DNA of 58,903 nt. Origin: a virus. Lineage: Duplodnaviria; Caudoviricetes. A program made the position numbers and the translations under genes. The notes beneath the pieces were generated by a model. That model had not been told where the DNA came from, ran no database searches, and saw only the letters and a program-made list of their open reading frames with translations. Positions 2,939 through 26,725 of the stretch are shown here, piece by piece (position 1 is the first letter of the stretch; every line of letters starts with the position of its first letter). The DNA lies in IMG/VR virus record IMGVR_UViG_3300025066_000029, positions 1-58,903 of that record; one strand, 5' to 3'.

Positions 2939-4059
2939 TATGATTCTTTTACAACACTCCAGCCTTCAAAGACAATGTCATTAGCAGCTGCAGTACCATT
3001 AGTACCAGTGATTTTTAAAACCATATCTGCTGTGAAATCTTCAGTATCTGTGAAAAGATCAATTTCTGTATCTTCAGCTCCAGCCCCTCCTTCAAAAGTC
3101 CATTTAACATATCCTTTTTGAGCAGCAGAACCTGTTCTAATCAACCATACTTCACATGTCCAAGGTAAATTATTTGGTGCTGTAATACCAGAATTTTGTC
3201 CTTGAGCTGTTGCTCCAATATACAATTTAAGTGTTTTAGTATTAGCTGTAGCACCTGTGTCACCATATGCTTTAATGTAAATACATTGACCATCAGTGTT
3301 TATAGTATCTGCTGGCATCGTGTAAGATACAAGATCTGTTTCAGTTGTTGAAGCTGGTGTACCAGCTGTTGTGCCTGAAGTATTAAGAGTACGTGATCCT
3401 ACAAGATTTGCAAGAGCCACTTCTTTTAAGTTACCAGAATCTGAGGTGTCAGAAACTAATACTGTATCTGTAGCTTGAGTAGAAGTTATTGCTGTCTTAC
3501 CAGTTATAGCTGTACTTGAAAGTGTTAAAGCACCTACAGCAGAAATTGTACCATCTCCTGACATACTCACCCACACAGGAATTGGAGTTGCATTCATTAC
3601 CAGTATTTGTCCTGAAGTACCAGCTGCAAGTTCTGTAGGAACACCCTCACCATTCATGTAGTACATTGAACCTGCAGTAAGATGTGCAAGTTTTGCAAGA
3701 GTGATTGCATTGTCTTCAATCATCTCTTCCTCAATAGTACTAGTATCAATGTTAGACGCTACACTGACATGCCAAGATCCAGCATTAGCATCATAGACTG
3801 CGAAGGCAAGAAAGGTTGAGTCTATTACTTGCTGGCTGATTGTAGTGCCCATAAAACTATAAGTAAATCCTCCTAGTGATACATTTCCTGTAGAGAGGAT
3901 AGGAATAGTCATTCCATGAACAGGAGTAAGACCAGCATCAATAATCAGGGTAAGATTGCTTACCAGTGTTTGTGTACCAGTAAGTACATTAATTCCTCCG
4001 GGAATTAATTCTATATTACCACCTGTTGTGTATGCTTGTTGTGTTGTACCTGCAATCAT
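2938..4059 (-). CDS. tail fibre/spike-like structural protein
   Basis: Thr/Gly/Ala-rich; fibre-type segments IEDNAITLAKLAH and GTSGQILVMN. Confidence 0.6.
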   Translation of the reverse strand: MIAGTTQQAYTTGGNIELIPGGINVLTGTQTLVSNLTLIIDAGLTPVHGMTIPILSTGNVSLGGFTYSFMGTTISQQVIDSTFLAFAVYDANAGSWHVSVASNIDTSTIEEEMIEDNAITLAKLAHLTAGSMYYMNGEGVPTELAAGTSGQILVMNATPIPVWVSMSGDGTISAVGALTLSSTAITGKTAITSTQATDTVLVSDTSDSGNLKEVALANLVGSRTLNTSGTTAGTPASTTETDLVSYTMPADTINTDGQCIYIKAYGDTGATANTKTLKLYIGATAQGQNSGITAPNNLPWTCEVWLIRTGSAAQKGYVKWTFEGGAGAEDTEIDLFTDTEDFTADMVLKITGTNGTAAANDIVFEGWSVVKES

Positions 4060-4790
4060 TATTGTGCTCGTTTAATGTGTTCTGCGTAAAGTAGTTTTCC
4101 TTTCAAATTTCCAAAAGCAGTAGAGGATGTTTCAAAGTATACTTTTATTTTGTGTGTTACTGGCCAATCAATAGAAACAAGTGCATCTCCATGAGATTGT
4201 CTATAAAAGATGTCATCAGTTATATTGATACTGCCTGCTCCTCCACTTGTACTAGAATTTCTATACCCATGAATGAGTGCACCAGTCGTTTGTCCTGTCC
4301 CCCTCTTATATAATTCTATGTCAAGATTACAGTAGTTTCTTGTTGTTTGCAGACATTGCATGTCCCATTGTGCAATAAGAACTTCAGTAGTACTTGGTAA
4401 ATCTTCTACAGCATATACATATGCTTTAAGCTCCTGACAAGAACTACCTGCGTTATCAAATACCCATCCAACCTTCACACGTAGTACATCATCTTGTTGT
4501 GACATTGCATCTACAGATGTTATTGTAGACCAATCTATTGCAAAAGCATTTCCAGTACCGTTTGCAAGAGGAACTTGTTTTGTATCATTAGCCATTAGGA
4601 ATTCCCCAATACCAAGTTCTAATATGTTGGCACCATCTTGCCCATCTGCACCATCAGCGCCTGTTGGGCCTTGTGGACCTGCAGGACCTGCGGTTCCAGC
4701 ATTACCAGTTGGGCCTTGTGGTCCAGTTGGACCACCGGGGACAGTGGTATCTAAACATGTTAAGTCATTTTGTCCGCATAAGCATCCCAT
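4059..4790 (-). CDS. collagen-like (Gly-X-Y) fibre protein
   Basis: GPTGPQGPTGNAGTAGPAGPQGPTGADGADGQDG repeat near the N-terminus after a CxC motif. Confidence 0.75.
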   Translation of the reverse strand: MGCLCGQNDLTCLDTTVPGGPTGPQGPTGNAGTAGPAGPQGPTGADGADGQDGANILELGIGEFLMANDTKQVPLANGTGNAFAIDWSTITSVDAMSQQDDVLRVKVGWVFDNAGSSCQELKAYVYAVEDLPSTTEVLIAQWDMQCLQTTRNYCNLDIELYKRGTGQTTGALIHGYRNSSTSGGAGSINITDDIFYRQSHGDALVSIDWPVTHKIKVYFETSSTAFGNLKGKLLYAEHIKRAQ

Positions 4791-11543: not shown

Positions 11544-13064
11544 TTAATTATCGTATTGCAAGATTACAGCACCACAACGGGTAATGTCTCTTACCATAAG
11601 ACCAAAGGATTTCTCAACTTTGATACCATATCCACCAACACCACCAGCTAATCCCGGTGAACCATCGTTGATAGGCATTCCTGATTTAGGATCCCATTTA
11701 CCAGTACTACAGAAGTAGTAATCAGCAAATTCTTCACAGACCATAGAAATATTATCCATGCCTGCTTTAGATTGATCACCAGTGTATCCAAAGTCAATGA
11801 TATCCATTCTGTAGCTATCAATTGTCTTATCTGGATAGAGAGGATGTGTCTTCCTTGCCATATCAGGATTGTCTTTTGAAGGATCAATCATAACTGAGAT
11901 GTCTAAACCATTCTTACCCACGTAGTGAGTAAACTGTAAGCCATAGGACATATGACGGAAGTCTTTACCACGGATATAATGACTATCAGTAGTGAAGAAT
12001 TGTGAAGCATCAGATGCTACCATGTTGTGGAACATGATTGCTCCTTGTTCACCAGTGGAGAGAACCAAACGCCTGTTAGCAGGTGTTGCATCTTTCCTTC
12101 CAGTGAAGATACTTGAAATCCAATCATCTAAACGAGCGAGTGTCAAGTTTCCATTGTGATAGAGGACGTTACCATCTTCTTGTTGCTCACGAAATCCGGG
12201 ACCTGTACGCTTAAGGTAACCTTGTGGTCCTACCCTTGTACTCTTACGTCCATATTGCAGACCCCACTCACAATCTTCATAGATACCATTCCATACTTCA
12301 GCTTCAGCCATAGGCATAAAGTTGTAGTAGGTTTTACCCTTGTTATCCAAGAATGGTACTCGCCAATGTGCAAGTTTCTGTACTTTGTTACCAGAATTTT
12401 TGTCTACACGCAATGCTTTATCACTGAAATTTACTTCTTCAGCAACGTTTCCAGTTTGTGAACGTAGTTCAAACACACTGTTAAACTGCATGGTTCCATA
12501 GTCCTGATTCATTTCATCAGCTATAGAAGTTCCATTTTTATGGAATTCCTGTCCAACTTGGATAAGAGCATCTGGGAATGTCAAGTTATTGTTGTCTGTC
12601 TGCAGACGAAGAGTATATTTCCAACCAATAGTAGAGTATGGAGAAGGTTCTCCTACTACTTCAACTGGATAATCCTCATCCTGTCCAACAAGTACATCTG
12701 GATACTTATACCAAGGAAGATCTAAGACTACATCAAAGGTTCTTTTACCAAGTCCATGTGTGGTTCCTGTCTCAACAACAGCAACTACCCTTGCTTTTTG
12801 TTTTTGATGTCCTCGTAGTTTCCATGAATACTGGTTACTAGACAAGTAAATCTTTTTACCTTTAGCTTCTGTCATAGCAATCCAAGGCTTATCCTGATAT
12901 TTATCAGTAGCCGAGAACAACTCTGCCATATTAGTAGCATTAGCTGAAAGGTCGTGGGTCTTATCCACACCATAAGTGCGTACTAGGTGGGTGCTATTAA
13001 AAGTATTGCCACCAAGACCATCTGTGATAGTTGTGAGCTTAAGCCCACCCGTATTTACAATCAT
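11544..13064 (-). CDS. major capsid protein (crAss-like, HK97 fold)
   Basis: 506 aa; YSWKL, YTLRL, TGPGFREQ, LSTGEQGAIMF segments; follows scaffold-like gene and precedes a terminator. Confidence 0.8.
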   Translation of the reverse strand: MIVNTGGLKLTTITDGLGGNTFNSTHLVRTYGVDKTHDLSANATNMAELFSATDKYQDKPWIAMTEAKGKKIYLSSNQYSWKLRGHQKQKARVVAVVETGTTHGLGKRTFDVVLDLPWYKYPDVLVGQDEDYPVEVVGEPSPYSTIGWKYTLRLQTDNNNLTFPDALIQVGQEFHKNGTSIADEMNQDYGTMQFNSVFELRSQTGNVAEEVNFSDKALRVDKNSGNKVQKLAHWRVPFLDNKGKTYYNFMPMAEAEVWNGIYEDCEWGLQYGRKSTRVGPQGYLKRTGPGFREQQEDGNVLYHNGNLTLARLDDWISSIFTGRKDATPANRRLVLSTGEQGAIMFHNMVASDASQFFTTDSHYIRGKDFRHMSYGLQFTHYVGKNGLDISVMIDPSKDNPDMARKTHPLYPDKTIDSYRMDIIDFGYTGDQSKAGMDNISMVCEEFADYYFCSTGKWDPKSGMPINDGSPGLAGGVGGYGIKVEKSFGLMVRDITRCGAVILQYDN

Positions 13065-13080
13065 AGGTTGTTATGAATTT

Positions 13081-14250
13081 TTATAATTTTGATATTCGTG
13101 AATCAACTGGATTCCTTGGGGGAGTATATGCATTACCTTGCTGTCCTACTCTACCACCACCAGCTGTTCGCTTTTTCAGTTTGTTAAATACTGTTTCATT
13201 CTGTTCATCCTTTTCAACCCTTTTCTTATTTTCTGGTAATGTAAACCCTGTTTTAGGATCATAACCAGCGAGTAGGTCTAGGAATTGAATGAAATGCTCA
13301 GGATTGCTTTGAATAGCCTGAGTCTTATATTGGTACTCTGGCATTGTAGCACCATTCTGCAACTGCACATGTTGGAAACTATTTAGTATTTCCTGTTGTT
13401 TAGTTGCTGCATAATTAGTATCTTTCAGACTCTTCATGAAGTTTTGCTTATAATTAGCCTGATAGTCTTGTTCTGCTTTGCGTTGTACTTTAGCCTGCTT
13501 TTCCATTTCACCTATATACTCCGCATTCTGTGCTTTGACATTTTGAGCATATTCCTTTGCAACATCTTCAAGCCCTCTATTATCCTTATCATCTTCAACA
13601 AGTTGTTGAACTTTATGATCAGGAAGATTGGTAGTATTCTTGTAATACTGTGTTACAAAGTTTTCAGCCACTCTATCATCTGAGAAATCCATACTATCAA
13701 GATTAGCAGTGGCTGAATGAGTAGAGATATAATTCTGGAGATCTCCATACTTCCCATCTTCAAGGCCAAACTTGATAATGGATTGTAGGACAGGATCATT
13801 GATTGAGTTTAGAAATTCAGTCTGTACTTGTTCTGTTTGTCTGCCTTTGTGATAGTCAATCAGCTCATTAAGCTTCTCTTCACTACCATCAAATTCAAAC
13901 TCTTCTGGAGCCTGTATGAGACCTAATTCAATCATGCCTGCTACATAATCAGTCATCTGCTCTTCAGCAACAGGTTCTTGATAAGTAGGTTCTTCGTCCT
14001 CATCTTCCTCCGTTACATATGCAGGTTCTTCTGACTCCTCATTTTCAAGAGCTTCTAAAGGCTTATACTTGTTGTCACCATCAAGGGTTATTGAAGTAGC
14101 GTCTTCATCATCCTTAACTGGTTCTTCTACAGTTACCTTCGGCTCCTCAATAGTTTCCTTATCATCTTTCTCTTTAGTTTTTTCTTGTATAAGATCCTCA
14201 AGAGGTGTGAAAGTCTGGAAACTGTCGTCTAAGTTAATTGTTTGTTCCAT
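13081..14250 (-). CDS. acidic scaffold-like capsid assembly protein
   Basis: Highly acidic N-terminus and helical C-terminus; directly upstream of the capsid gene. Confidence 0.6.
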   Translation of the reverse strand: MEQTINLDDSFQTFTPLEDLIQEKTKEKDDKETIEEPKVTVEEPVKDDEDATSITLDGDNKYKPLEALENEESEEPAYVTEEDEDEEPTYQEPVAEEQMTDYVAGMIELGLIQAPEEFEFDGSEEKLNELIDYHKGRQTEQVQTEFLNSINDPVLQSIIKFGLEDGKYGDLQNYISTHSATANLDSMDFSDDRVAENFVTQYYKNTTNLPDHKVQQLVEDDKDNRGLEDVAKEYAQNVKAQNAEYIGEMEKQAKVQRKAEQDYQANYKQNFMKSLKDTNYAATKQQEILNSFQHVQLQNGATMPEYQYKTQAIQSNPEHFIQFLDLLAGYDPKTGFTLPENKKRVEKDEQNETVFNKLKKRTAGGGRVGQQGNAYTPPRNPVDSRISKL

Positions 14251-14338: not shown

Positions 14339-17300
14339 TTAGTATATTGAGTAGTCAAATTCTCTACCACTATGCTTTGATATCCGCTTTGTGGGACCCC
14401 CACTTTGTCTATTTGTTGGAGTAATAGTCGTTTGCGTTTTCATCATTGTTGTTGGACTCTTATCAATAGACCATCCACTTGCTTCTGGTTTCATTGACCA
14501 TATTGCAGGATCCTGTTGTTGACTACGTGCAGTTACCTCTGGATATTTTACAGGTTTAATAACAGCTCCTTTTGGTGTAAAGTCTTTGGGATCAAAATAA
14601 GGGGCTGTTGTAATGTCTCCACGCTTCTCTCCAATATTTATATTACCCCATGGTTGCATACCTGAAGGAATCATACCTTTTGGTATAACAGTACCTATAG
14701 CCTTGTTTACAGTTCCTGGCTCTCCTAATTCAGGATAAAATGTAGCATTACCAATTGGATTGGAGAAAGGAACCTTAGCGCGTGTTGTTGGAGAAAGCTT
14801 AAAATTATTATTTTGGTCAGGGTTTGCAAGTATAACTTGAGCATTAGGGTTTCTATTCCATGCCTCTTCCCTTTTCTTTATAGTGTCAGGGTCAAAACTT
14901 TGAACTGGTCCTGTTCTTTTATACCCAAGCTTACTTCTTCTCTCATCTAAGTAAGCCTGATGTTGTAATACATCAATACTATCTTGTCTTGTGGGCACAT
15001 ATTCATTTCTACCACCATCTTGGAATTGCTTATTCCCAGGTCTTTGGATATCATAATACTTGGTTTTTTCATCTGCAGCAACCATTGCAAGCTTGCTTTT
15101 CTCTTCTGGTGACATGTTTTCAAACAAATCAGGGTTATACATGATGTTATCATACCCATCTCCTTTAGCACGAGGATCCATAAACTTGATATGTGTTGCT
15201 CTTTTAGCAAGATCTTCCTGTGTACTTTTTGGTAGGTTGTGAACGTTGGGTAATTCAATAGCACGAGTTTGCATTTGATTTCCAATCCACTCTGCCTTCT
15301 TTCCTACCTGTATATCCTCATTTGGTTGATTACCAAAAGCAGGAGTTTGTACTCTTGAAGAAGATGCTCTAAATCTTGGATCTAGCATCCCATATCCAGT
15401 ACTACTACCATCTTGCATCATAGGTATACTACTGAATTTAGGGTTCAATGGAATTTCAGGTTTAGGTTCTGGTATTGGTGTAGAAATATTCTTGTTATAT
15501 TTTTCAAGATACTGAGAAGGTGTTTTATTAGCTTGTTTAGCATTAGGACCATAGATATTAGGAAGAGCTTCTGCTAAAGGTTTTTTATCTCTTAAATGAT
15601 AACCAAGATAATTTCTTGTACCCTGTCTTCCCAAAAGGTTAGCCATTGCTGCAATTTGATCTTTAGTAAAGTTAAATCCCGGAATTTGTGGTTTATACTC
15701 TGCATATAAATCATCTGCTGTTTTCTTTAATCCCGGTATTCCTTTAAGTTTACCATCATACTGCATTCTAAACATCTTGTTTTGCAAGTCTGTATCTCCT
15801 GCAAGATCATCTCTTGTTACCCCTTCCATTTCTGGATAATCTTTTATTTGATTATACAACATCTGATATTGTCCAGTAGCTGAAGACTGAGGATTCTTAA
15901 CATGTGGTCTACCATCTGTTTCTGTCATGTAGATTGCATTCTTAAACTTTTGGTAATCAATAGTATCATTCTTCATCCCTAAACCATTTTGTGCTTTTGG
16001 AATAGGGCCACCATCTTGTTTTAAGGGAATTTCTTCATAACCTTTTAACCCATTATCCTCATGTATATCTTCAAGTGCATCTAGCTGATTTAATCTTTTT
16101 TGCCAAGGAAAATATCTTGCCTTAGATTTCGTCAAATTAATACCCTTTGCAAGCATAGGATTTTTAAAATTTTTGATATACTTTATCTTTCCCAGTTTGC
16201 CAAGAAGAGGAATAGCCCCAAACATATCAATTCCTGCGTCTACAGTAGGGTATTTTTTTCCAGATGTTTTCCAAGAATTATATGCTCTTCTGGCATCATT
16301 CCAAGACATTATTCCGCTAGGATCAAAAAATTCAATCAAATTTTCAGCAAAACTATCCTTATCTGCTAGCATCCAGTCTTTATATATATTTTGAATACTT
16401 GGGGGTTGTGGACTTATAAAACCAGCCTTATAAAGTTCATGAAAAGATGGTTGCTGCCAAGAAGGTAAACTAGTAGTTTCAGTATATTCTTTTGCTGGAT
16501 TTGTTACAGGATATGATTTTGGAGAATCAGAAGAACTCCATTCATATCCATGACCGCGTCCATCTTGTATTGCTTCTACTGGAAAATATTCTGCTCTACC
16601 ACTGGATAGATTATTAGGGTCAACCGTCATAAACTTTCTCACCATTGTTTCATCAAAGACTTCTTGCTTAGTTGGTTCAATAGTTGAATTTTTTAATCCA
16701 TAGTTAGTTTGAGGATTATTTGACCATTGTAATGGATATCCATCTTGTGCAATAGGAACTTCAAGAACATTTTTAGAGTTAGGGAAAATATGTCTTTGTC
16801 CCGGATTCATGATCATTGGTGGGTCCCCATCAGGATATACTGCTAATGTTTTACCAGTATTTGTATTGTCAATGTTTCCACTTGAAATAATATTGTAAGG
16901 ATTATTAGCTGTTTGAGTTCCTCTTGTATAACCAGTTTTGTTTACAAATCCACCATCTTGAAATTGTGCACGAATACTTTCCCCTATACTTATTTTAGGA
17001 AGCTGTGCTTCATATTCTTTTTGTGTGTAAAATCCTTTGGTAGGAGTTTGTTTTGCAAGTACAAAGGGACCAGTCTTCATTCCATTGTATTCTCCTTGTC
17101 CAGCTTTTACCATCAACTCTCTTTGTGCTTTTTCAAAGTCTGTTTTAAGGTTTTGTCTTTTTGTATAATTACCCTTATACTCATCACCAAAATCCCATAT
17201 ATCCTGTGTGGTTGTTGTTAGATTCCCTTTTGGATCATAGTGGAGATAATTCATATAGCCGCCAATATCATCTGCACTTTTTGAAGCAGTTGTATTTGTA

Positions 17301-19990
17301 CTTTCAAGTGGCATGTAAGGGTGTGTGGTGAGGTAGTTACCCACCCTTGTTTTGAATTCCTCTATATTTTTAGGTTTCTCTTTCCATAATGCTTCTTTAG
17401 AACTTGATGCAAGATCATACAAATGTTGTATATCTAACGTATCCGGTTTACCTTCATAATATGAGGCTGGCGTATTAAGCATTTCATATGTTCTTCCTTG
17501 ATAGTTTTCCTGCTCGGGTATATTATATAGTTGGCCTGTATAAGGTTTAAATCCAGTTGTGTCTCCATAAATGTAATTTTTTAATAGATCCCTCTTTGGA
17601 ATTGCATCAGGATTAAATAAAGGGTGTTTCTTAGGACTGGGAAGGAAGCCATAGTCGTCAGTCTTTAAATCTCCAACTGCCCCAGTATATTTTCCAACTC
17701 CTGGAAAATGGGGTTTATAATCATTGGTTGACATTCTAACGGGACTTCTATATACTCCCTTTTTTGCTGCTGTCTGATTACTTGCATATTTATATGCTTG
17801 ATGTTTTAGTTCATCTCTGGCTCCGGGGAGGTTCCACATAGCATCTGGAACACTATTAATTCCCAGAACTAATCCTTCATATTGTGAAGGATGAAGTGTA
17901 CCTGCTTTTAATGCATCAACTTGTTCTTTTATTTGACCAAAACCTCCAATATCGGGAAAAGTTAGTGTTCCTATTCCATTTTGTGCTTTGGGTATAAACC
18001 CACCATCTTGACGTATAGGTATGTTTCTGTGTGCTCTTTTTTCAGCACTTGGTTTAAGAGGTGGGTTAAAATCGTAGGTACCATCTGTATTCATAGTGTA
18101 ATGAATTCTTCCCTTAATATCAAATGGTCTCCCAGCAAGTTTTTCTCCTTTGACAGTTGTCTTTCCTAAAGGAATGTCAAAGTCATATTCATCACTATAG
18201 TCAAAGTAGTTGAGTTGATTTTCTTTATCAAAACCCTTATCTACCCTATAGTTCTTCAATACAAAGCCACCTGTGGCAGAATCCTTGATGTAGTCTGTAT
18301 TGTTAGGTGAATTCAGAACACCTCTTTCTACAACATCATCTATAATGTCATCCTCATTATTGAACCTATAAGTATTAGTTGCAGTCTTTGAAAAGGTATT
18401 ATTCTTCTGCCCCTGATTAAGATATATTCCCCAAGCATCCATAGAAGCATCCTTAGCATATTGCCCATAATATCCCATTTCTCCTGTCTGTGGATGTTTC
18501 CATCTTTCCATATCTTGAAAAGTATCCCAATGAGTATCTTTTCCATCCCATTTAAATGGTAATCGTTTTCCTTGAACGTATTCATTAAGAGCATGTTTAG
18601 CATCATAACCAATAGGTGTTACAGAGTTATACAATCTTTTCTCCCGTTTTTCTCTATTTGTAAAAGAAGATAAGAGACCACCATCTCGAAATTTCCAATT
18701 AACTTTACCTCTTGGTCCTAATGATCCTGTACCTGCATTATAATCTATACCCGCTCCAACATTAAGTCGCTTATTCACATCATAGTTAGTATCAAATGCA
18801 TAACTTCCTGCATTATGTAAATATCTTCCATCAAGTTTGTGATTCTTCAAATAAGGTACTGTAAATTCCCCGCCTATAGCTACAGGTCCTTTCTTCATCC
18901 CACCTTGTGTAATTTGTAGGTTTACATGTGGATTACCAAAATCTACAGGTTGTGTATTCCCTCCCCACATAACACCATTATATGGTTGATGTTTTGGTAA
19001 GTTTAAGTTTATGTCACCACCAGGTTGAAATTGTGCTGGTTGTTGTTGTGGATTTTGAAGTGTTGGAAAAGTTTGTGGAATTGGTTTTGGATCTAATTCC
19101 CCTCTTTTATAAAACCCCTTTGTAGGAGTATCTCTTGCAAGTATAAAAGGCCCTGTTCCTTCTCCTTTTCCTGCTTTATCCATAAGACTTGCCTGAGCTT
19201 GTGTAAAAGTTTCCATTGTGATATCTGCATTTCCCCAATATTTTCCGTAATCATTTCCTTTTTTACCCGAAACAAAATCCCATATATCCTGATCTTTTTT
19301 AACTACATTACCATCCTTATCATAGTAATAATACCCCATAGACCTTCCTATATCATCTGTTGAGTTATTTTCAAAAGTACCTGTACTTAAAGTATGTGTA
19401 AAGGGTAAAAATGGCTTAGTTTTAAGATGATCATAGACTTTCTGTTTTATATCATTCGTATATTTTATAGAATCTTGCTTAGAAAACCCTTCTATACTCC
19501 CTTCAGCTGTTTCAAGGAAATCCTTCCAAAGTGGAGTATCTTCCCAAGCAACTTCTCCTAAAATTCCCTCTGGTGTTGCAGTATCCTTTTTAACAGTATG
19601 TGTGGCACTCTTGGCCATTTCATAAGTTCTTCCTTTATAATCCTGAGAATTTGGAACATTAAATATTTCTCCTTCATATGGTTTAAATCCCTGAGTATCT
19701 CCATAAAGATAATTTTTCAGAAGATCCCGGTCTTTTTCAAAGACATTACCACTATAATCTCCCCCTTTAGACGGAGTTATTTCTTCACTGTGTAAATATC
19801 CTTTACCGGATGCCTCAGTTTGTGAACCAAATTTATAAGCATATTCTTTTAGCAAATCTCTGGCTCCCGGCATATCCCATACAAAATCAGGAAGTTTATC
19901 TGCAGCTATTACTAAGGATTTCACTTCTGTAGATGAAAGTTCTCCTTTCTTAAATTTTTCAAGTTGGGCTTTTATTTCTTGAATACTCAT
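14339..19990 (-). CDS. 1883-aa modular virion cargo-like polyprotein with QDGG linkers, a duplicated domain and a lytic transglycosylase-like domain
   Basis: Recurrent (F/K/R)QDGG-type motifs; ~300-aa internal duplication; AIYMTETDG...SSATGQYQM lysozyme-like motif. Confidence 0.75.
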   Translation of the reverse strand: MSIQEIKAQLEKFKKGELSSTEVKSLVIAADKLPDFVWDMPGARDLLKEYAYKFGSQTEASGKGYLHSEEITPSKGGDYSGNVFEKDRDLLKNYLYGDTQGFKPYEGEIFNVPNSQDYKGRTYEMAKSATHTVKKDTATPEGILGEVAWEDTPLWKDFLETAEGSIEGFSKQDSIKYTNDIKQKVYDHLKTKPFLPFTHTLSTGTFENNSTDDIGRSMGYYYYDKDGNVVKKDQDIWDFVSGKKGNDYGKYWGNADITMETFTQAQASLMDKAGKGEGTGPFILARDTPTKGFYKRGELDPKPIPQTFPTLQNPQQQPAQFQPGGDINLNLPKHQPYNGVMWGGNTQPVDFGNPHVNLQITQGGMKKGPVAIGGEFTVPYLKNHKLDGRYLHNAGSYAFDTNYDVNKRLNVGAGIDYNAGTGSLGPRGKVNWKFRDGGLLSSFTNREKREKRLYNSVTPIGYDAKHALNEYVQGKRLPFKWDGKDTHWDTFQDMERWKHPQTGEMGYYGQYAKDASMDAWGIYLNQGQKNNTFSKTATNTYRFNNEDDIIDDVVERGVLNSPNNTDYIKDSATGGFVLKNYRVDKGFDKENQLNYFDYSDEYDFDIPLGKTTVKGEKLAGRPFDIKGRIHYTMNTDGTYDFNPPLKPSAEKRAHRNIPIRQDGGFIPKAQNGIGTLTFPDIGGFGQIKEQVDALKAGTLHPSQYEGLVLGINSVPDAMWNLPGARDELKHQAYKYASNQTAAKKGVYRSPVRMSTNDYKPHFPGVGKYTGAVGDLKTDDYGFLPSPKKHPLFNPDAIPKRDLLKNYIYGDTTGFKPYTGQLYNIPEQENYQGRTYEMLNTPASYYEGKPDTLDIQHLYDLASSSKEALWKEKPKNIEEFKTRVGNYLTTHPYMPLESTNTTASKSADDIGGYMNYLHYDPKGNLTTTTQDIWDFGDEYKGNYTKRQNLKTDFEKAQRELMVKAGQGEYNGMKTGPFVLAKQTPTKGFYTQKEYEAQLPKISIGESIRAQFQDGGFVNKTGYTRGTQTANNPYNIISSGNIDNTNTGKTLAVYPDGDPPMIMNPGQRHIFPNSKNVLEVPIAQDGYPLQWSNNPQTNYGLKNSTIEPTKQEVFDETMVRKFMTVDPNNLSSGRAEYFPVEAIQDGRGHGYEWSSSDSPKSYPVTNPAKEYTETTSLPSWQQPSFHELYKAGFISPQPPSIQNIYKDWMLADKDSFAENLIEFFDPSGIMSWNDARRAYNSWKTSGKKYPTVDAGIDMFGAIPLLGKLGKIKYIKNFKNPMLAKGINLTKSKARYFPWQKRLNQLDALEDIHEDNGLKGYEEIPLKQDGGPIPKAQNGLGMKNDTIDYQKFKNAIYMTETDGRPHVKNPQSSATGQYQMLYNQIKDYPEMEGVTRDDLAGDTDLQNKMFRMQYDGKLKGIPGLKKTADDLYAEYKPQIPGFNFTKDQIAAMANLLGRQGTRNYLGYHLRDKKPLAEALPNIYGPNAKQANKTPSQYLEKYNKNISTPIPEPKPEIPLNPKFSSIPMMQDGSSTGYGMLDPRFRASSSRVQTPAFGNQPNEDIQVGKKAEWIGNQMQTRAIELPNVHNLPKSTQEDLAKRATHIKFMDPRAKGDGYDNIMYNPDLFENMSPEEKSKLAMVAADEKTKYYDIQRPGNKQFQDGGRNEYVPTRQDSIDVLQHQAYLDERRSKLGYKRTGPVQSFDPDTIKKREEAWNRNPNAQVILANPDQNNNFKLSPTTRAKVPFSNPIGNATFYPELGEPGTVNKAIGTVIPKGMIPSGMQPWGNINIGEKRGDITTAPYFDPKDFTPKGAVIKPVKYPEVTARSQQQDPAIWSMKPEASGWSIDKSPTTMMKTQTTITPTNRQSGGPTKRISKHSGREFDYSIY

Positions 19991-20388
19991 TGTACTTGAT
20001 ATTTTTTAGTTTCCTGACCAAGATAGTTGTACGGTAACTTGTACGGTAACTTGTGCGGTGCTATTTCAGGTGTGTGTATTGATGTGGGAGATTGTGGACA
20101 GAATACTGAATCAGACTCTGTGTAGAGTTCTGTTCCATATGCATCATAGGATGCCATGTAGTTTCCGAAGGAGTATTGATAGGCTTGTATCTGTCCATCC
20201 AAAGTCTGCCTACTAGTATCAATGCTATAATAATGAGAGCACGTACTATCATTGTAGAGAGTATGTCCTTGTTCTGGGATTCCGTTGTATGAAAAGTCAT
20301 TGCAAAGTTTATGAACAACAATCAGGAAGTGATCCTGAATGTTAAGTATTTCATAGTGTTTATTTTTTTGGTGAAGGTTTTGGTGGCT
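19987..20388 (-). CDS. open frame between portal and polyprotein; start codon uncertain
   Basis: 133 stop-free codons ending YNYLGQETKKYQVQ; stop overlaps the polyprotein ATG; no early ATG. Confidence 0.35.
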   Translation of the reverse strand, partial: SHQNLHQKNKHYEILNIQDHFLIVVHKLCNDFSYNGIPEQGHTLYNDSTCSHYYSIDTSRQTLDGQIQAYQYSFGNYMASYDAYGTELYTESDSVFCPQSPTSIHTPEIAPHKLPYKLPYNYLGQETKKYQVQ

Positions 20389-22897
20389 TCATGCGTGCAA
20401 TTTTTTCTTGAGACTGAATCTTCTCTCTTTCAACTTCTCTATCCTTCTCTTCCTGTCCTACTTTAGCATCAAGTTCCCTATCCTTCTGTGCAAGCTTCTT
20501 ATCTTCAATAGTCAGTTTGGCAGCATCAGAATGTGCATTAGCAATAATACCTGAGTGATCAGGTGCCTGTTGATTGAGTGCAGCCTTAACTTTTTCTACT
20601 TCAAGCTTCCCTTGAATTATCATTCTTTCCTTTTCAATCTCATGTTGTTGCTCATCCTCACGATTATCAATCTGTAGTTGCTGCATTTTCTCCTGACTCT
20701 GACTTTGCTGCATACCAAGTGCTTGCTTATCCTTCTGGATCTGTGCTTCTATATCATCTACATATTCACGGAATTCAGTGAGGGATTCTGCAGGCATAAG
20801 GCGTGTAAGTTTAGAAAGTGCCCTTTCCTCATTCTGCAGTACTGCATGTGCTTGTTGTTTGAGGGCTTCAAGGTTTCTATGAGTTTTAGCATTATCCTCA
20901 AGAATAGCTGCCATATCAATATCAGATAGGTCTAAGTCTCTTGTCTTAATAGTATATAGTTCCCTATCCGATAGCCAGTATCTCAGGTATTCAGGATCTG
21001 TTTCTACTATTTCCTGTTGAAGGAGTTTCAGATAACCATTAAGTACTTCTCCCCAAAGGAGATCATGAAGTGCAAACTTGGTTTCAGTGATTACTGCTGA
21101 TTGTGCAACATCCCTTAGGTTATCTGATACATTAGTATTAGAAATTGTCCTAGCTTCTCTTTGTGGTGCAATACCCGCAGCCATCCCTATTTGTTGTTCT
21201 ACAAATCTAAGAATCTCAGCGTAGTGTGCAATCTTGTCTGTATTAGACATATCCACAGATTCAGCAACTTTAAGAGTATTCATCATTCCAGCCGTTTCCT
21301 TATTCTGTAGTGGATTGTAGGGTATGATTCCTGAGTCTTCAGCATACTTCTGCACCATCTCTACACCAATATCCTTATCTACCATCAAGACATTCAGGAA
21401 TGTTAAGCGTCCCTTATCTAATCCAATAAGTTTGAGAAACTTGGACATAATCACAAGGTAGAGTTTTTGCCAAGGCATCATCCTCCCCATTGTACTCATC
21501 ATTGGTGCATTAGCTGCAGAGAAGACAGCACCATAAATAGGTAATTTTACATCATAAGGATCGCTAGTTGTTTGATAAGCATATGGGTATGGTTCTATCT
21601 GGCAGAATATGTCATCATTAATTCTGGTTCCCCACCATATTTCAGGTGCCCATTCCCATTGTAATTCATGTTGCAAACCCTCTTCTACCCAAGTATAGAT
21701 CTTCTTAGTAACTCCAAATTGCTTTTCAGATCTTGTTCTATGCTCATCTGGAAGTTCAAACTCCTCACTTACGATATCTGTGTGCTTCTTATGATATTCA
21801 TCATACCATGTTATGAAGCCCATCAAACGCTGTGATTTCCAGAAGCCTGTATAGACAGTATGGTAGTCATCTTGTGAACCTGTAGATTGTCCATATTGCC
21901 CACTGTGTAATATATCTCCTGATGAAGGAGTTCCATCGTTGTTAGATTTGTATCTTATGTTCTCCCAGTGACTGGGGGAATAGCCATCTTTTGAGTATAG
22001 TTTAGCATCTAAGCCATAGACATTACCTGAATAATCATCAAGGCGCTTAAGGTCCTTCTTCTTCATCAGGTGGCCATAATTATCAAGAACATCTCCAGTA
22101 GTCATCTCTCGCTTGTATACTACGTAATCACCATCTTGTGTGAATTGTTCTTCAGGACTCTTATGGTAGGCAACACCTAAGGGATTGATTACCTCAAGGT
22201 GTGGTTTACCATTCTTCATCCAAACGCCTACATATTCAAGGCCACTAATATTACTATTGAACCATGATTGAGTCTTCTTATGCTTAAGGTGCTCCTTAAT
22301 GGTAGCCCTCTTCATTATCTTCTCAAGAGCTTGTTCTTCAGCTGTTTTAAATGATTCATACTTCTGCTCTATAAGTTCAGGTGTGAGTATGAATTCCATC
22401 TCTTTCTGAATCTGTTGCTCAAGTTGTTTCTTAGCTTCTTCCTGCTGTTCAGGTGGTACACCTTGAAGTTGCATCATACCTTCTTGCTGTGCAAGTTGTG
22501 CCTCCTTATTAAGAGCTGCATTAATGAATTTCCTATAATCACCCTCTCTCTGCCTTAGAATCTTATTAGTAGTATTAGGTGCTAAGGACACTACATGGTA
22601 ATTCCAAGGTCTCTTTTCCTCTTCACCAGATAGTACATCAATCTTATTGTGCACATGGTTAAAGGCTTGTACATAATCCTTACCTGTACCTATATCTAAA
22701 CCCAAAGGGTCACAGAATTTCTGGAAGTCATCTTGGTCATAATCTGCATTATATGCACGATAGTTCTTCCACATGGTTTCCCAATTAGCATAGAAGAATT
22801 CGTCTGCCTGACTACACAGATAATTCATACTGTCCACTCGCCATTGTTTGTTTTTGCTCGTGAACTTCAGTTGTTGTTTTGGTTTTCGATATAGCAT
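20360..22897 (-). CDS. portal protein (crAss-like)
   Basis: 845 aa directly after TerL; NKIDVLSGEEEKRP, IWWGTRI, KLPIYG, AGIAPQRE segments; coiled-coil C-terminus. Confidence 0.85.
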   Translation of the reverse strand: MLYRKPKQQLKFTSKNKQWRVDSMNYLCSQADEFFYANWETMWKNYRAYNADYDQDDFQKFCDPLGLDIGTGKDYVQAFNHVHNKIDVLSGEEEKRPWNYHVVSLAPNTTNKILRQREGDYRKFINAALNKEAQLAQQEGMMQLQGVPPEQQEEAKKQLEQQIQKEMEFILTPELIEQKYESFKTAEEQALEKIMKRATIKEHLKHKKTQSWFNSNISGLEYVGVWMKNGKPHLEVINPLGVAYHKSPEEQFTQDGDYVVYKREMTTGDVLDNYGHLMKKKDLKRLDDYSGNVYGLDAKLYSKDGYSPSHWENIRYKSNNDGTPSSGDILHSGQYGQSTGSQDDYHTVYTGFWKSQRLMGFITWYDEYHKKHTDIVSEEFELPDEHRTRSEKQFGVTKKIYTWVEEGLQHELQWEWAPEIWWGTRINDDIFCQIEPYPYAYQTTSDPYDVKLPIYGAVFSAANAPMMSTMGRMMPWQKLYLVIMSKFLKLIGLDKGRLTFLNVLMVDKDIGVEMVQKYAEDSGIIPYNPLQNKETAGMMNTLKVAESVDMSNTDKIAHYAEILRFVEQQIGMAAGIAPQREARTISNTNVSDNLRDVAQSAVITETKFALHDLLWGEVLNGYLKLLQQEIVETDPEYLRYWLSDRELYTIKTRDLDLSDIDMAAILEDNAKTHRNLEALKQQAHAVLQNEERALSKLTRLMPAESLTEFREYVDDIEAQIQKDKQALGMQQSQSQEKMQQLQIDNREDEQQHEIEKERMIIQGKLEVEKVKAALNQQAPDHSGIIANAHSDAAKLTIEDKKLAQKDRELDAKVGQEEKDREVEREKIQSQEKIARMKPPKPSPKK

Positions 22898-25154
22898 TTT
22901 TACGATTTCTTATATGCTCAGGCATCTTGGAAATGAAGTAGTCCATCACCTGATCTACGTCTTTAGCCTTTTCAATAAATTCTTTATGATGATTTCTCAT
23001 CTGTATAATACCTCCCATAAGGCTCAGTACCCTATCAAAGTTACCTTTCCGGTTGTATTGTATAAGTTCCTTAATAAGGGGCTTAGAAGAAAGAAGATCT
23101 AGGTTGGTTTCTGTATCTCCTGTATATGGATTCTTTCTCTCCTCCCTAAGCCACTGATTAGTATATATTTCACCCATCTCTTTAAGCTTCTCAGCTCCCA
23201 TAGAGTGACCTGTCTGTCTCTGTAATGTTCTTGATGTTCCCATAAACTGCCCTATGAGGTAGGCAGGTGGTTTCATTAAGCGATGAAATTCATTATGTTT
23301 AATGAAGTATTCCCTTACTGCTTTCCCAGCTCTATCATTCTCATGTGTAGCTTGTGCATTATAGTATCTTGATAGTTTCAGGAGTATATTATGAATGGTG
23401 TCCATAGGATCTAGTTTTGGTCTACCTGTCCATTCAGCTACCACTTCATCATGCCCCATTTCAAATGGGTAATTACAGGATTTTAGCACTAATATTGATG
23501 CAAGTGACTGTCCACCTTCAGCATCTATGCCAATAGGGTCAATGGTAACTATATATGCATCATTAGGAATAAGCCCATGAATTTCAATAGGATGTTCGTA
23601 GATGACAAGAGCACCTTCATGATCATCAGTTTCCTTAAGTGGAAAATTCTGTATAGGTTGAAGCTTTCCCTCTAAATCTGGTTTAAACTTGGTTTCTCCT
23701 TTTACAGTTATCAATTCTCCAACAGTACCAAGAAGTCTGAATTCATTATTAGATGTCAGACGTGAAAGGCGCTGATAGAGTTCTGCAGTAGGGAAGATAT
23801 TCCCTTCTGGTACCAAGAATGCTTCTGAAGGAGTTTTACAATACTGTGTAAGATCTGTGTTATAAGATTTCTTATCCTTTCCCTTTGAAGCTATTCTCTC
23901 AATATTGAGATCAATCTCTGCTACCCAATGACGTGAGTTTCCATTAGCATCCACTGCATCATAAGATGCTCCATCCAGGTTGGTGAATGTTGCACCTTCC
24001 CTGAACCACATATCAGCAATGAACAATCCACATTGTCCTTTAGCACCTGTCTCATAAATATTCTTGTAACCTTTCAGCTTGTACTTAGTAGGTTGATAGA
24101 ACATATCTGCAAAATCCTGAGTAGCACCATCCATGTCACCACCAGTTCCAAAGATAATTGCAATACCTTTCAAGAACTTTCCAGACCTTAGGGTTGGTTC
24201 TGTAAATGCCCAAGCTTCCTTAAGCCGTTTTACTTCTCCTGCTTCCTCAAATATTACTCTTGCACAACCTTTACCAGATGCTGAATGAGGCTTGTTAAAG
24301 AGGGTTACTGTTTCAATAACAGATCTCCTACCTCTTTCTGCACCACTCTTCTTAGCCTTAACACCTGCTTTAATCCCACCTGCCTTTTTGGGTTGGTAAT
24401 TTCTATATATAGTAGGACCACCAAACTCTGTATAATCAGTGAGGAAATCAATATAGGATAGGCACTTTTCAAATGTATCAGCAGACTTTTCACCAGTCTC
24501 TGAAACAATAAGGACTTTAGAATTAGGGACAAAGCTGTATTTCCATACTGCACCTGCTGCATTCTTATAAGACCATCCCTTCCTTCTTGCTTTAGCAAGA
24601 ATGATATGCCCTCTATATTCAGCTGGGAGATTATAACGTTTAGGGTTCTCTCTGGCTTCTAATTCTAAGAACCAGTAATAATCCATTGCACAGAACATTG
24701 GAAAGTCAACAACTTCTGTCTCAAGACCAGTGTTCTCATCAATCCCAACTCTACCTATAGGGCAGAAGTTGAGGTAGAAGTAGTGTTCACCTGATATACG
24801 GATACCACAAGGGTTACCATTAATTTCTGGCTCATATCCGTGAATACACCTCTCACGTTCTTGCTTCCAGAACTCTCTATAAGAGCGCGTACCTTTTAGG
24901 TATGGAGTATATGTTGCTTTCCTACTAGAACCTCTTGCTGCTTCTTTGGATTTCCTATAGGCATCTGCTGCAGGTTGAAAAATACTTGAATCTTTGAAAA
25001 ACAAGTAATCCCATTGCAGATTTGCAACAGGATTTTGGTATACTTGTGGAGAAAGTTTACCATAGAGTTTTTCTTCTTTTTCAAGATGTACCTGAGGAAT
25101 CTCTGATATAAGATCTTCAATCTTCCAAATATGTGCAGCAGCTGGGTCTATCAT
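22812..25154 (-). CDS. terL: terminase large subunit
   Basis: Walker A KARRKGWSY, Walker B VIFEEAG, FGTGG coupling motif, RNase H-like TIDP and GNFDRVLSL. Confidence 0.93.
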   Translation of the reverse strand: MIDPAAAHIWKIEDLISEIPQVHLEKEEKLYGKLSPQVYQNPVANLQWDYLFFKDSSIFQPAADAYRKSKEAARGSSRKATYTPYLKGTRSYREFWKQERERCIHGYEPEINGNPCGIRISGEHYFYLNFCPIGRVGIDENTGLETEVVDFPMFCAMDYYWFLELEARENPKRYNLPAEYRGHIILAKARRKGWSYKNAAGAVWKYSFVPNSKVLIVSETGEKSADTFEKCLSYIDFLTDYTEFGGPTIYRNYQPKKAGGIKAGVKAKKSGAERGRRSVIETVTLFNKPHSASGKGCARVIFEEAGEVKRLKEAWAFTEPTLRSGKFLKGIAIIFGTGGDMDGATQDFADMFYQPTKYKLKGYKNIYETGAKGQCGLFIADMWFREGATFTNLDGASYDAVDANGNSRHWVAEIDLNIERIASKGKDKKSYNTDLTQYCKTPSEAFLVPEGNIFPTAELYQRLSRLTSNNEFRLLGTVGELITVKGETKFKPDLEGKLQPIQNFPLKETDDHEGALVIYEHPIEIHGLIPNDAYIVTIDPIGIDAEGGQSLASILVLKSCNYPFEMGHDEVVAEWTGRPKLDPMDTIHNILLKLSRYYNAQATHENDRAGKAVREYFIKHNEFHRLMKPPAYLIGQFMGTSRTLQRQTGHSMGAEKLKEMGEIYTNQWLREERKNPYTGDTETNLDLLSSKPLIKELIQYNRKGNFDRVLSLMGGIIQMRNHHKEFIEKAKDVDQVMDYFISKMPEHIRNRKNAISKTKTTTEVHEQKQTMASGQYELSV

Positions 25155-25937: not shown

Positions 25938-26249
25938 TCATAATGTTCTTGTCCATTTGTTATCTTTTCCATATCCATACTCTTTTTTAAGGGCTGCTCT
26001 TTGTTTATATTGTTCATTAAGTTCTGCTCTAAACTTTTCTGTAACCTTCATACCCAATAGTGGGTCACATGTTTCATCAGGATCCAAGTTAACTTCGTAA
26101 ACAACTTCACTCTTTGGAATTACATAAACACCTGCCATTGGAACACCTATTACCTTGAATTCTTCTGTTTCATCTAATAAGAAATAGGTGATACTATGTT
26201 TTGGATTTTTTATAGCATCAATTACTTGTTCTCGTTGTTCTCCTGTCAT
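25938..26249 (-). CDS. hypothetical protein
   Basis: 103 aa, coupled start. Confidence 0.55.
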   Translation of the reverse strand: MTGEQREQVIDAIKNPKHSITYFLLDETEEFKVIGVPMAGVYVIPKSEVVYEVNLDPDETCDPLLGMKVTEKFRAELNEQYKQRAALKKEYGYGKDNKWTRTL

Positions 26250-26725
26250 AATTGTGGTAAGTTCACAAACTCAATAGTACCACAACCACCATGCTCATTA
26301 GCCCACTTGGTAATTGCTTTCTCAGCAGTACCTTGGATGGTGGTCTCCTCAATATTGTCGTCATCATCATCAGGGTTGTAGTTGTATGCCGCAAGTAGGC
26401 ATCCATGTGAGTGCTCGTGCTTGTTGCCTCCGTGGATTCGGAGCCCTGAAAATGATATACCTTGGGATTCCAGTGTCTTATCTGTGGTGTTGTATATGAG
26501 TATCATGTCTCTCTTAAACCTCGGAGAAGAAGTAACCTCATAACTATATACACCAGCAGGGATAGCAGTATGACCATAAACTTTTATAAAGGGAGGACGT
26601 AGTGTGTCTTCCAGCGAATAACAGTGATACTTATCGCCTAAGTATATCTTGCCTATTGTAGTTTGTTGTGTATACTTAAATCTCTCAATCTTTATGTGAG
26701 CCATGTTCAATGTATATGAGTTCAT
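26246..26725 (-). CDS. DUF5675 family protein (L,D-transpeptidase-like putative cell-wall enzyme)
   Basis: TIGKIY...CYSLED...TAIPAGVY...RIHGGN...SHGCLL signature. Confidence 0.75.
   Translation of the reverse strand: MNSYTLNMAHIKIERFKYTQQTTIGKIYLGDKYHCYSLEDTLRPPFIKVYGHTAIPAGVYSYEVTSSPRFKRDMILIYNTTDKTLESQGISFSGLRIHGGNKHEHSHGCLLAAYNYNPDDDDDNIEETTIQGTAEKAITKWANEHGGCGTIEFVNLPQL

Follow-up and report, generated by a model that had tools for sequence, protein, structure and literature searches.

The 58,903-base stretch of DNA analysed here (the window; IMG/VR record IMGVR_UViG_3300025066_000029, a virus of the Caudoviricetes) contains a giant gene whose product, P0001, is punctuated by a recurring short peptide. 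Our best explanation overall, which we consider likely, is that P0001 is a mosaic of about nine modules, most probably carried in the phage particle, in which a conserved joint peptide connects one module to the next. The joints are specific to the P0001 gene, lie in predicted flexible segments beside folded domains, and are the places at which modules are inserted, lost and replaced. The window is an incomplete phage genome, and an identical protein is on record on a 96,572-base contig. P0001 has no match in Pfam (E values up to 1), PHROGs or NCBIfam; in uncultured phages, such giant multi-domain proteins are for the most part dark matter. The joint peptide provides a simple rule for splitting such proteins into units that can be folded, expressed and assayed singly.

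Modular organization of P0001

The modules (M1 to M9) and joints are listed below from the N terminus to the C terminus. Module limits were drawn from the joints, from homology within a set of 154 family proteins (P0003 and the other P-numbered proteins) and from comparison with a near-identical metagenome contig, L001, both described below.

14339..19990, minus strand: whole P0001 gene, a single open reading frame (ORF) of 1,883 amino acids encoding a mosaic multi-module protein
19013..19990, minus strand, amino acids 1-326: M1, a paralogue of M4 that ends AQFQPGG; its first ~48 amino acids are common to the relative P0003
19016-19030, minus strand, amino acids 321-325: joint FQPGG, after a Pro/Gln-rich spacer
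18692..19015, minus strand, amino acids 326-433: M2, Gly/Asn-rich, ends GKVNWKF; no homologue among the 154 family proteins
18677-18691, minus strand, amino acids 434-438: joint FRDGG, which aligns with the LPKAQDG or FKEGG that precedes the same module in P0004 and P0005
18041..18676, minus strand, amino acids 439-650: M3, present in 17 of the 154 family proteins
17969..18028, minus strand, amino acids 655-674: full double joint IPIRQDGGFIPKAQNGIG, containing RQDGGFIPKAQNG (amino acids 660-672, 17975-18013)
16964..17965, minus strand, amino acids 676-1009: M4, the second copy of the M1-type domain
16949..16963, minus strand, amino acids 1010-1014: joint FQDGG, the meeting point of two blocks shared with L001; predicted coil with a block pLDDT (predicted local distance difference test) of 59
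16739..16948, minus strand, amino acids 1015-1084: M5, a small beta domain that ends VLEVPIAQDG
minus strand, amino acids 1081-1084: joint AQDG, the end of M5
16037..16738, minus strand, amino acids 1085-1318: M6, absent from L001; no homologue in the set
15977..16036, minus strand, amino acids 1319-1338: full double joint EIPLKQDGGPIPKAQNGLG; predicted coil, pLDDT 44-54
15983-16021, minus strand, amino acids 1324-1336: KQDGGPIPKAQNG, the core of the second full double joint
15461..15976, minus strand, amino acids 1339-1510: M7, helical and lytic transglycosylase-like, with Glu1357-Thr1358 at the conserved E-S/T position
15404..15460, minus strand, amino acids 1511-1529: Pro-rich spacer and joint IPMMQDG, with MQDG at amino acids 1525-1528; pLDDT about 50-60
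15026..15403, minus strand, amino acids 1530-1655: M8, replaced by other sequence in L001; no homologue in the set
15011-15025, minus strand, amino acids 1656-1660: joint FQDGG; 97% identity to L001 restarts 5 amino acids before it
14411..15010, minus strand, amino acids 1661-1860: M9, common with L001 (224 of 230 residues identical over amino acids 1654-1883)
14342..14410, minus strand: RQSGG (amino acids 1861-1865) and an 18-residue basic/aromatic C-terminal tail

M1 (amino acids 1-326) and M4 (amino acids 676-1014) represent an internal duplication with 35% identity (E 3e-59), and both terminate in AQFQ[P/D]GG. Together with M9, they are restricted to P0001 and P0003 within the family set, and M2, M6 and M8 are restricted to P0001. 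M3 directly precedes an M7-type module in P0004-P0007. A protein atlas gave no usable lead for M1 or M3 (best score for M3 0.85, to unnamed viral clusters).

M2 looks all-beta by eye, and the GKVNWKF just before RDGG resembles the C-terminal signal of outer-membrane barrels. By eye, the M6 segment DAGIDMFGAIPLLGKLGK (window 16500-16600, amino acids ~1245-1270) resembles G-x-x-I-D-A...A-G-F-x-L-P-F segments, which precede the C-terminal domains of the syntenic proteins of three other viral loci (L048, L053 and L062). A transmembrane segment in P0001 is unlikely, the highest 19-residue Kyte-Doolittle mean being 0.95.

Within the window, the joint motif is confined to P0001

Every motif that an earlier sequence-only reading of this DNA had listed is present in P0001 where that reading had placed it, and one further QDG, in IQDG (amino acids 1141-1144), had escaped it. 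P0001 contains two full copies of the joint (amino acids 660-672 and 1324-1336) and seven partial ones. The local form is [F/K/R]-Q-[D/P/S]-G-G, twice lengthened to IPxxQDGG-xIPKAQNG, and at these two sites a longer near-identical peptide is shared (IPIRQDGGFIPKAQNGIG and IPLKQDGGPIPKAQNGLG).

Motif counts were compared with those in 5,000 residue shuffles of P0001. The 4 copies of QDGG compare with a shuffled mean of 0.054 and the 7 of QDG with 0.63, and 0 of the 5,000 shuffles reach either count; the corresponding figures are 6 versus 0.16 for Q[DPS]GG and 5 versus 0.10 for [QR]DGG. GG alone is not enriched (14 observed, ~15 expected given 9% Gly). A six-frame scan of the whole window, covering stop-to-stop ORFs of at least 60 amino acids (31,435 residues), found all 4 QDGG, 6 Q[DNPS]GG, 2 PKAQ and 6 [ILV]PxxQ[DN]G in the P0001 ORF, so that across the ORFs of the window QDGG occurs in P0001 only and far above expectation. 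At the DNA level the 11-mer CAAGATGGTGG has 4 copies in the window, each at a QDGG site of the P0001 gene. The shuffles and the restriction to one ORF rule out chance or low complexity as the source of the motif.

Exchange of modules at the joints

L001 is 99.7% identical to the window at the nucleotide level over 8.6 kb upstream of the P0001 gene (terminase and portal) and 97% identical over 6.9 kb downstream of it. Within the gene, the two have only the following blocks in common.

20344-19845: 92% identity, taking in the first ~48 amino acids of the protein
17008-16950: 93% identity, ending in QDGG
16960-16740: 97.7% identity, from the CAA of QDGG (amino acid 1011) to AQDG
16003-15400: 70% identity, module M7, from PKAQNG to MMQDG
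15037 onward: 97% identity, beginning 5 amino acids ahead of FQDGG

When the internal ends of these blocks are compared with the motifs of either protein, 7 of 8 fall within 6 amino acids of one and the remaining end is 16 amino acids away. M6 and the full joint that follows it (amino acids 1085-1336) are missing in L001, where M5 is joined straight to M7: the sequence reads IPIAQDG-LGMKND, and the M5/M7 junction falls in the match between AQDG and AQNG. Blocks that start and stop at motifs bear out the proposal that relatives would shuffle modules at these sites, as do block ends across the wider family (below). When the two near-identical genomes are compared, the P0001 gene stands out as the rapidly changing part in a head-gene block that is stable elsewhere, which is the pattern expected of proteins that meet the host first.

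The 70% DNA identity of M7 amid flanks of 97-99.7% suggests the substitution of a divergent allele, bounded at either end by a joint.

A family-wide joint peptide

A database search with P0001 returned seven homologues, and the distant homologues among them (P0004-P0007; 1,067-2,854 amino acids) are punctuated by GGSLPKAQ. A profile of M7 (amino acids 1336-1512), the module with the widest distribution, matched 404 representative proteins at E values up to 0.001; the best 150 of these 404 matches, together with the earlier hits, make up the family set of 154 proteins (145,495 amino acids). The frequent 5-mers of this set all lie in M7 and occur once per protein, save for three overlapping exceptions that occur in multiple copies: LPKAQ (53 copies in 27 proteins), GGSLP (34 in 20) and SLPKA (30 in 18). 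The family consensus of the joint is aromatic/basic-x-GG-[S/Q]-L-P-K-A-Q-x-G, and the QDGG motif of P0001 is, on comparison of the sequences, a local form of this x-GG-S-L-P-K-A-Q-x-G peptide.

Searching a viral contig collection for the exact DNA pattern encoding GGSLPKAQ gave 39 matches in 35 stretches, all 39 in frame in long ORFs (median 1,294 amino acids, many truncated by the locus end). In the collected loci, 20 instances of the joint peptide are encoded by 19 distinct synonymous DNA versions. Because the codons vary in this way, it is the peptide itself, and not its DNA, that is conserved and under selection, and it probably has a function beyond that of a spacer.

Homology blocks span motif sites much less often than random positions (ratio 0.23 versus 0.59; 71 sites, 1,420 controls). 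Among 151 family proteins of at least 400 amino acids, 91 of the 354 internal ends of blocks with at least 70% identity lie within 2 amino acids of a GG, against 3.7% expected. With duplicates collapsed, GG ranks first of the 400 dipeptides scored (95 of 286 boundaries, 33%, versus a background of 5.2%), AQ second and PK fifth, where the dipeptides scored are those at 8 or more boundaries. An earlier test on the ends of all high-scoring segment pairs gave a two-fold enrichment only and was dominated by the ends of the shared M7 domain; it was replaced by the spanning test and the high-identity block test.

The smallest members of the family are M5-joint-M7 proteins of ~250-300 amino acids (for example P0086 and an ORF of locus L070), and the giant forms look as if they had arisen by expansion at joints. 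GG occurs in the last 32 residues of 76 of 231 proteins, against 23% expected, and the tails that follow the last GG recur: GGYRPRFL, GGYKSRYV, GGWLDKY(N) and GGFKKKCKYGCW. Pfam is empty for P0003, P0005, P0007 and the syntenic proteins of two loci (L051 and L056); that of L048 gives DUF192. In a full-text literature search for the joint motif strings, none of the matches listed was a paper with a phage or virus in its title or abstract. New from the window are the Q-D-G-G form of the joint, this being the only half that most joints of P0001 retain, a sister genome with recent swaps at joints, the derivation of one motif half from the final strand of M5, and a cultured phage whose joints are similar (the last two described below).

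Second large ORFs without M7 also contain LPKAQ, for example as LSNLLPKAQFG, in the same loci (L005 15707-19114, L008 16644-20468, L011 15837-17330, L019 15617-20248 and L032 12839-15448), so the joint peptide is not limited to one protein per phage.

Predicted structures of M5, M7 and the joints

We used AlphaFold to model two separate segments of P0001 with alignments, one containing M7 and the other M5; a single alignment over amino acids 1000-1545 had been dropped, as it spread the M5 fragments across a long gap. Rows excluded from the folding alignments were P0038 among the short proteins (1 of 30) and P0009, P0038, P0050, P0071 and P0087 among the non-redundant M5 fragments (5 of 35). 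For M7, a redundancy filter kept 40 of the 75 M7 stretches from the viral loci, and all 40 were used.

The M7 segment (amino acids 1300-1545, 70 sequences) was predicted with a mean pLDDT of 81 and a predicted template-modelling (TM) score of 0.72, the helical core (amino acids 1340-1510) exceeding a pLDDT of 90. The preceding joint (amino acids 1319-1338) is coil with block pLDDT values of 44-54, and the MMQDG spacer (joint amino acids 1525-1529) is at ~50. In the M5 segment (amino acids 985-1110, 41 sequences, mean pLDDT 71), the core is a small beta domain (amino acids 1015-1082, pLDDT 84-93). QDGG lies just ahead of its first strand, LEVPIA forms its last strand, and QDG exits into a low-confidence stretch. 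None of the five sites that could be checked beside the M5 and M7 models falls within a folded core.

The M5 alignment contains the motif V-x-E-x-P-[L/M]-A-Q-x-G with invariant V, E and P, and because these invariant residues lie at the final strand of M5, one half of the joint, P-x-A-Q-x-G, corresponds to the conserved end of this domain. M5 is present in 50 of the 154 family proteins, and 37 of those 50 have its start among their first 35 residues; P0001 has it at an internal position. Foldseek found nothing in the Protein Data Bank (PDB) below E 0.2 for M5, with weak and partial cupin-like matches only. In a viral structure library, its best fold match is gp040 of Cellulophaga phage phi4:1 (E 1e-5), and tblastn with the M5 fragment of the relative P0108 led to this gene as well, in both phi4:1 and phi17:2 (7 records, 39% identity, E 9e-4).

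For M7, the first Foldseek match in the PDB is phiKZ gp144 (E 1.3e-3), followed by MltE, MltF, Cj0843c and Slt; lytic transglycosylases are the first 10 matches listed and 31 of the first 34, all of them weak with TM scores of 0.30-0.35. In family-1 lytic transglycosylases the catalytic Glu is followed by Ser. Glu1357 is kept in 62 of 63 aligned M7 sequences, and Ser or Thr comes next in 61 of 63. On the basis of the model, M7 weakly resembles a lytic transglycosylase and may work like one; we do not claim that it belongs to the family. A tblastn search of 50,697 phage records with the stand-alone M7 protein P0019 gave zero matches.

Genomic context and a possible place in the virion

The genes around P0001 are as follows.

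22812-25154, same strand as P0001: large terminase gene, upstream (PHROGs)
20360..22897, minus strand: portal gene, upstream of P0001 (PHROGs phrog_6547, E 4e-75)
13081-14250: gene for a 389-amino-acid acidic protein, downstream of P0001, without a family hit
11544..13064, minus strand: major head protein gene, downstream of P0001 (PHROGs phrog_11589, E 2.6e-45)

PHROGs identifies the portal and major head protein genes on either side, as the sequence-only reading had proposed; the scaffold that it had also named was a guess, the 389-amino-acid protein having no family hit. The closest cultured relatives of the major head protein are in Flavobacterium phages such as FpV4 (26.6% identity), and Bacteroides crAss-type phages are also present among the 116 records that match it; because the head protein matches both groups, we regard the phage as distantly crAss-like. 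The gene order in FpV4 is terminase, portal, 382-amino-acid protein and head protein, and the giant gene is absent. Neither tblastn with P0001 against the 50,697 phage records (zero matches) nor a search of viral contigs with the whole protein (no relative confirmed) found a counterpart.

Among 77 viral loci with an M7 homologue, 14 also hold a portal homologue, and in 14 of 14 the portal gene is immediately upstream of the M7 gene on the same strand; in the 10 of these 14 loci that also carry a head-protein homologue, it lies ~1.2 kb downstream. In this phage group the giant gene thus belongs regularly to the head block, and in the window it is much enlarged. The protein in most of the 14 syntenic loci has 519-974 amino acids, and these relatives show [K/Q]-x-GG-[F/Y] joints and tails such as GGYRPRFL. 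A role in the virion is plausible from the portal-adjacent position (14 of 77 loci), the transglycosylase likeness of M7, and the presence of M5 in a protein annotated as virion-borne from tandem mass spectrometry (MS/MS).

L001 carries an additional ORF of ~380 amino acids (L001 8604-9749) between the portal and giant genes, with a signal-peptide-like start, MKFLTILLVLLFSL. The window counterpart (20061-20359) contains only an 86-amino-acid ORF without a family hit.

What the joints may do

In the explanation that we favour, P0001 would be packaged in the particle and ejected, M7 would open the cell wall at entry, and the joints would keep the modules independently foldable and exchangeable in a cargo protein built like beads on a string. 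M5 and M7 form the recurrent core of a large protein family of uncultured phages, and the other modules are lineage-specific. The joint peptide would have a function beyond that of a spacer, for which a hinge, a docking tag and a cutting site are the candidates.

The sequence-only reading had taken the motif to be cut, so that about eight cargo proteins would arise from one ORF, and this did not find support: no protease was identified in P0001 or the 40 other window proteins. Under such processing, a phage, host or built-in protease would act on the GG joints or right next to them, either as the head matures or once the protein has been ejected, giving about eight or nine proteins. P0001 does have a repeated consensus site between its parts, the models place the joints in accessible coil between folded domains, and the peptide is conserved regardless of codons. 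The short extension past the final GG in the 76 of 231 proteins noted above (23% expected) has parallels in ubiquitin-like precursors and in the GG-X sites that African swine fever virus and adenovirus use. That M2 ends GKVNWKF before RDGG would be sensible if a free C-terminal aromatic residue needed exposure, and its terminus, which looks like the signal of an outer-membrane barrel, would then be exposed only after the cut. Several syntenic relatives contain HExxH strings, but Pfam assigns no family to these; P0001 has 0 Cys and no HExxH; and no peptidase family was recognized by Pfam in P0001 or the 40 other proteins, nor by PHROGs in the 16 that were scanned. Cutting would also make relatives that end 2-11 residues after the last GG shed tiny peptides, would release pieces of 7-9 residues between two GGs in some of them, and would act at residues 11-18 in P0012, and the many C termini 2-11 residues past the last GG are explained no less well by a tag or tail than by a cutting site. 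The searched text of the crAss001 virion paper (PMC10172136) contains no 'protease', 'proteoly-' or 'cleav-'. We regard processing in general as rather doubtful, and we think it improbable that the joints are cut by a protease class unrecognized in tailed phages, or by a host envelope protease at ejection, into about nine separately acting proteins. To our knowledge, GG-directed polyprotein processing of virion cargo has so far come from large eukaryotic DNA viruses, and cut joints, if real, would amount to a new processing system in tailed phages.

The short C-terminal extensions can also be accommodated if the joint peptides and GG-aromatic-basic tails are docking tags that bind a module to a partner, serving as loading or positioning signals rather than cutting sites; candidate partners are the portal, the inner face of the capsid, the packaged DNA, the cell wall and, through strand addition, an M5-type domain. 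Consistent with this, the motif occurs at protein ends that need no hinge (residues 11-18 of P0012, and the tails GGYRPRFL, GGWLDKY and GGYKSRYV), and the hydrophobic-P-x-A-Q-x-G half is the last beta strand of M5, isolated copies of which could serve as spare strands. According to passages of PMC10172136, the crAss001 cargo protein gp45 has segments that bind to the portal and to the tail barrel. Docking alone, however, leaves the clustering of module exchange at joints unexplained, and we consider it unlikely; if the joints are tags, they would constitute a new way of loading cargo. In a further reading, the 11-mer CAAGATGGTGG would be retained as a DNA crossover site and the peptide would be without function. 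The four exact copies of the 11-mer all lie within the P0001 gene, the L001 breakpoints are at or beside copies of it, and the first Gly codon is GGT at 7 of 7 GG-type joints (QDGG, FRDGG and FQPGG) compared with 33% GGT gene-wide. Yet for homologous exchange 11 bases is a very short length, the codons CAA and GAT are simply those preferred (76% and 83%), the second Gly codon differs among the copies, distant relatives retain the peptide within different flanking DNA, the 20 instances in relatives use 19 DNA versions, and Pfam recognized no recombinase family among the 41 window proteins scanned. Exchange at the motif, as the sequence-only reading had it, stands, but its attribution to conserved linker DNA has little behind it with 11 nucleotides in common, and we judge a DNA signal of this kind very improbable. 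A conserved hinge takes up what remains once cutting and docking have been given their shares, and these readings do not exclude one another.

Several points count against the picture of a mosaic, particle-carried protein with exchangeable modules. The analysis is wholly computational, and the virion location is inferred from synteny and one shared small domain. M2, M6 and M8 have no homologue, so that their limits rest on the motif and the comparison with L001, and no boundary is apparent at IQDG, which falls within M6. Because BLAST block ends favour conserved islands, the GG enrichment may partly reflect conservation of the motif rather than exchange, and the related sequences in the boundary counts are not independent. 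The match of M7 to transglycosylases is weak (best E 1.3e-3, TM score about 0.34, root-mean-square deviation about 7 Å), and sequence comparison does not place M7 in the SLT family, Pfam giving 0 hits and a PDB profile search a hit at the level of chance (E 0.56). The protease negative covers the 58.9-kb window, and a protease could lie elsewhere on the phage genome.

Comparison with known systems

A cultured counterpart of the joints is in phi4:1 gp040 (YP_008240628.1), whose record annotates it as a virion structural protein from MS/MS proteomics. Like P0001, gp040 contains an M5-type domain, here N-terminal and ending LEVPNFQAGG, with [F/Y]-Q-x-G-G sites beyond it; its joint-like sites are NFQAGG, SYQNGG, TFQIGG and KFQSGG, and its C terminus reads WGGKKR. 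Unlike P0001, gp040 has 895 amino acids and no M7, and phi4:1 is a different type of phage with a 145-kb genome. The link to gp040 makes the choice between hinge, tag and cutting site testable in a cultured system.

The neighbouring phi4:1 gene product gp041 (L080 6749-8968), a tail protein of 739 amino acids, contains a Phage_lysozyme2 domain (E 5e-32) as well as two HExxH strings. In phi4:1, the adjacent genes gp040 and gp041 divide between them modules that the giant proteins combine in one chain.

The virion lytic transglycosylases phiKZ gp144 (PDB 3bkh) and the T7 core protein (PDB 9jyy chain I) are both structural matches of M7. They share with it a Glu-Ser/Thr early in the domain and the arrangement of a wall enzyme in a large internal or ejected protein, but the correspondence is weak (E 1.3e-3 at best, the T7 chain at rank 41), with no Pfam SLT assignment and no PDB sequence match. 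GG-X sites are used in polyprotein processing by African swine fever virus (pp220 and pp62, cut by the protease pS273R) and by adenovirus. P0001 is like the African swine fever virus precursors in being a long protein with repeated Gly-Gly sites between its parts; it differs from them in that no matching cysteine protease was found in the window, P0001 is itself without Cys, and the viral lineage and host range are unrelated.

Among known kinds of protein, the polyvalent proteins found in phages and conjugative elements come closest. As described in the main text of the defining paper (Iyer, Burroughs, Anand, de Souza, Aravind 2017, PMC5512222), polyvalent proteins are long, combine many unrelated domains, often include one that cleaves the cell wall, show extensive mosaicism and, it is proposed, are packaged into the particle and delivered together with its DNA; for some, processing by built-in peptidases is proposed. 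The ~9 modules of P0001 defined by joints and homology lie within the 2-15 unrelated domains by which such proteins are recognized. P0001 has joints, whereas a joint peptide is not described in the main text of that paper, in which the word 'linker' occurs 0 times. P0001 also differs in having no recognizable peptidase (including a zincin-like MPTase), no Pfam domain, and modules outside the catalogue given there. In crAss001, the large cargo proteins gp45 and gp46 are stored in the head and tail for ejection (PMC10172136). P0001 has no homology to them (zero matches by tblastn in the 50,697 phage records), and the consulted passages of that paper do not mention processing of cargo proteins.

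Other features of the window

Pfam recognizes three further features in the late region elsewhere in the window.

26246-26725: DUF5675 (E 3e-18)
9-779: Laminin_G_3 lectin-like domain (E 1.5e-15)
4059-4790: short collagen-like repeat, under the family cut-off

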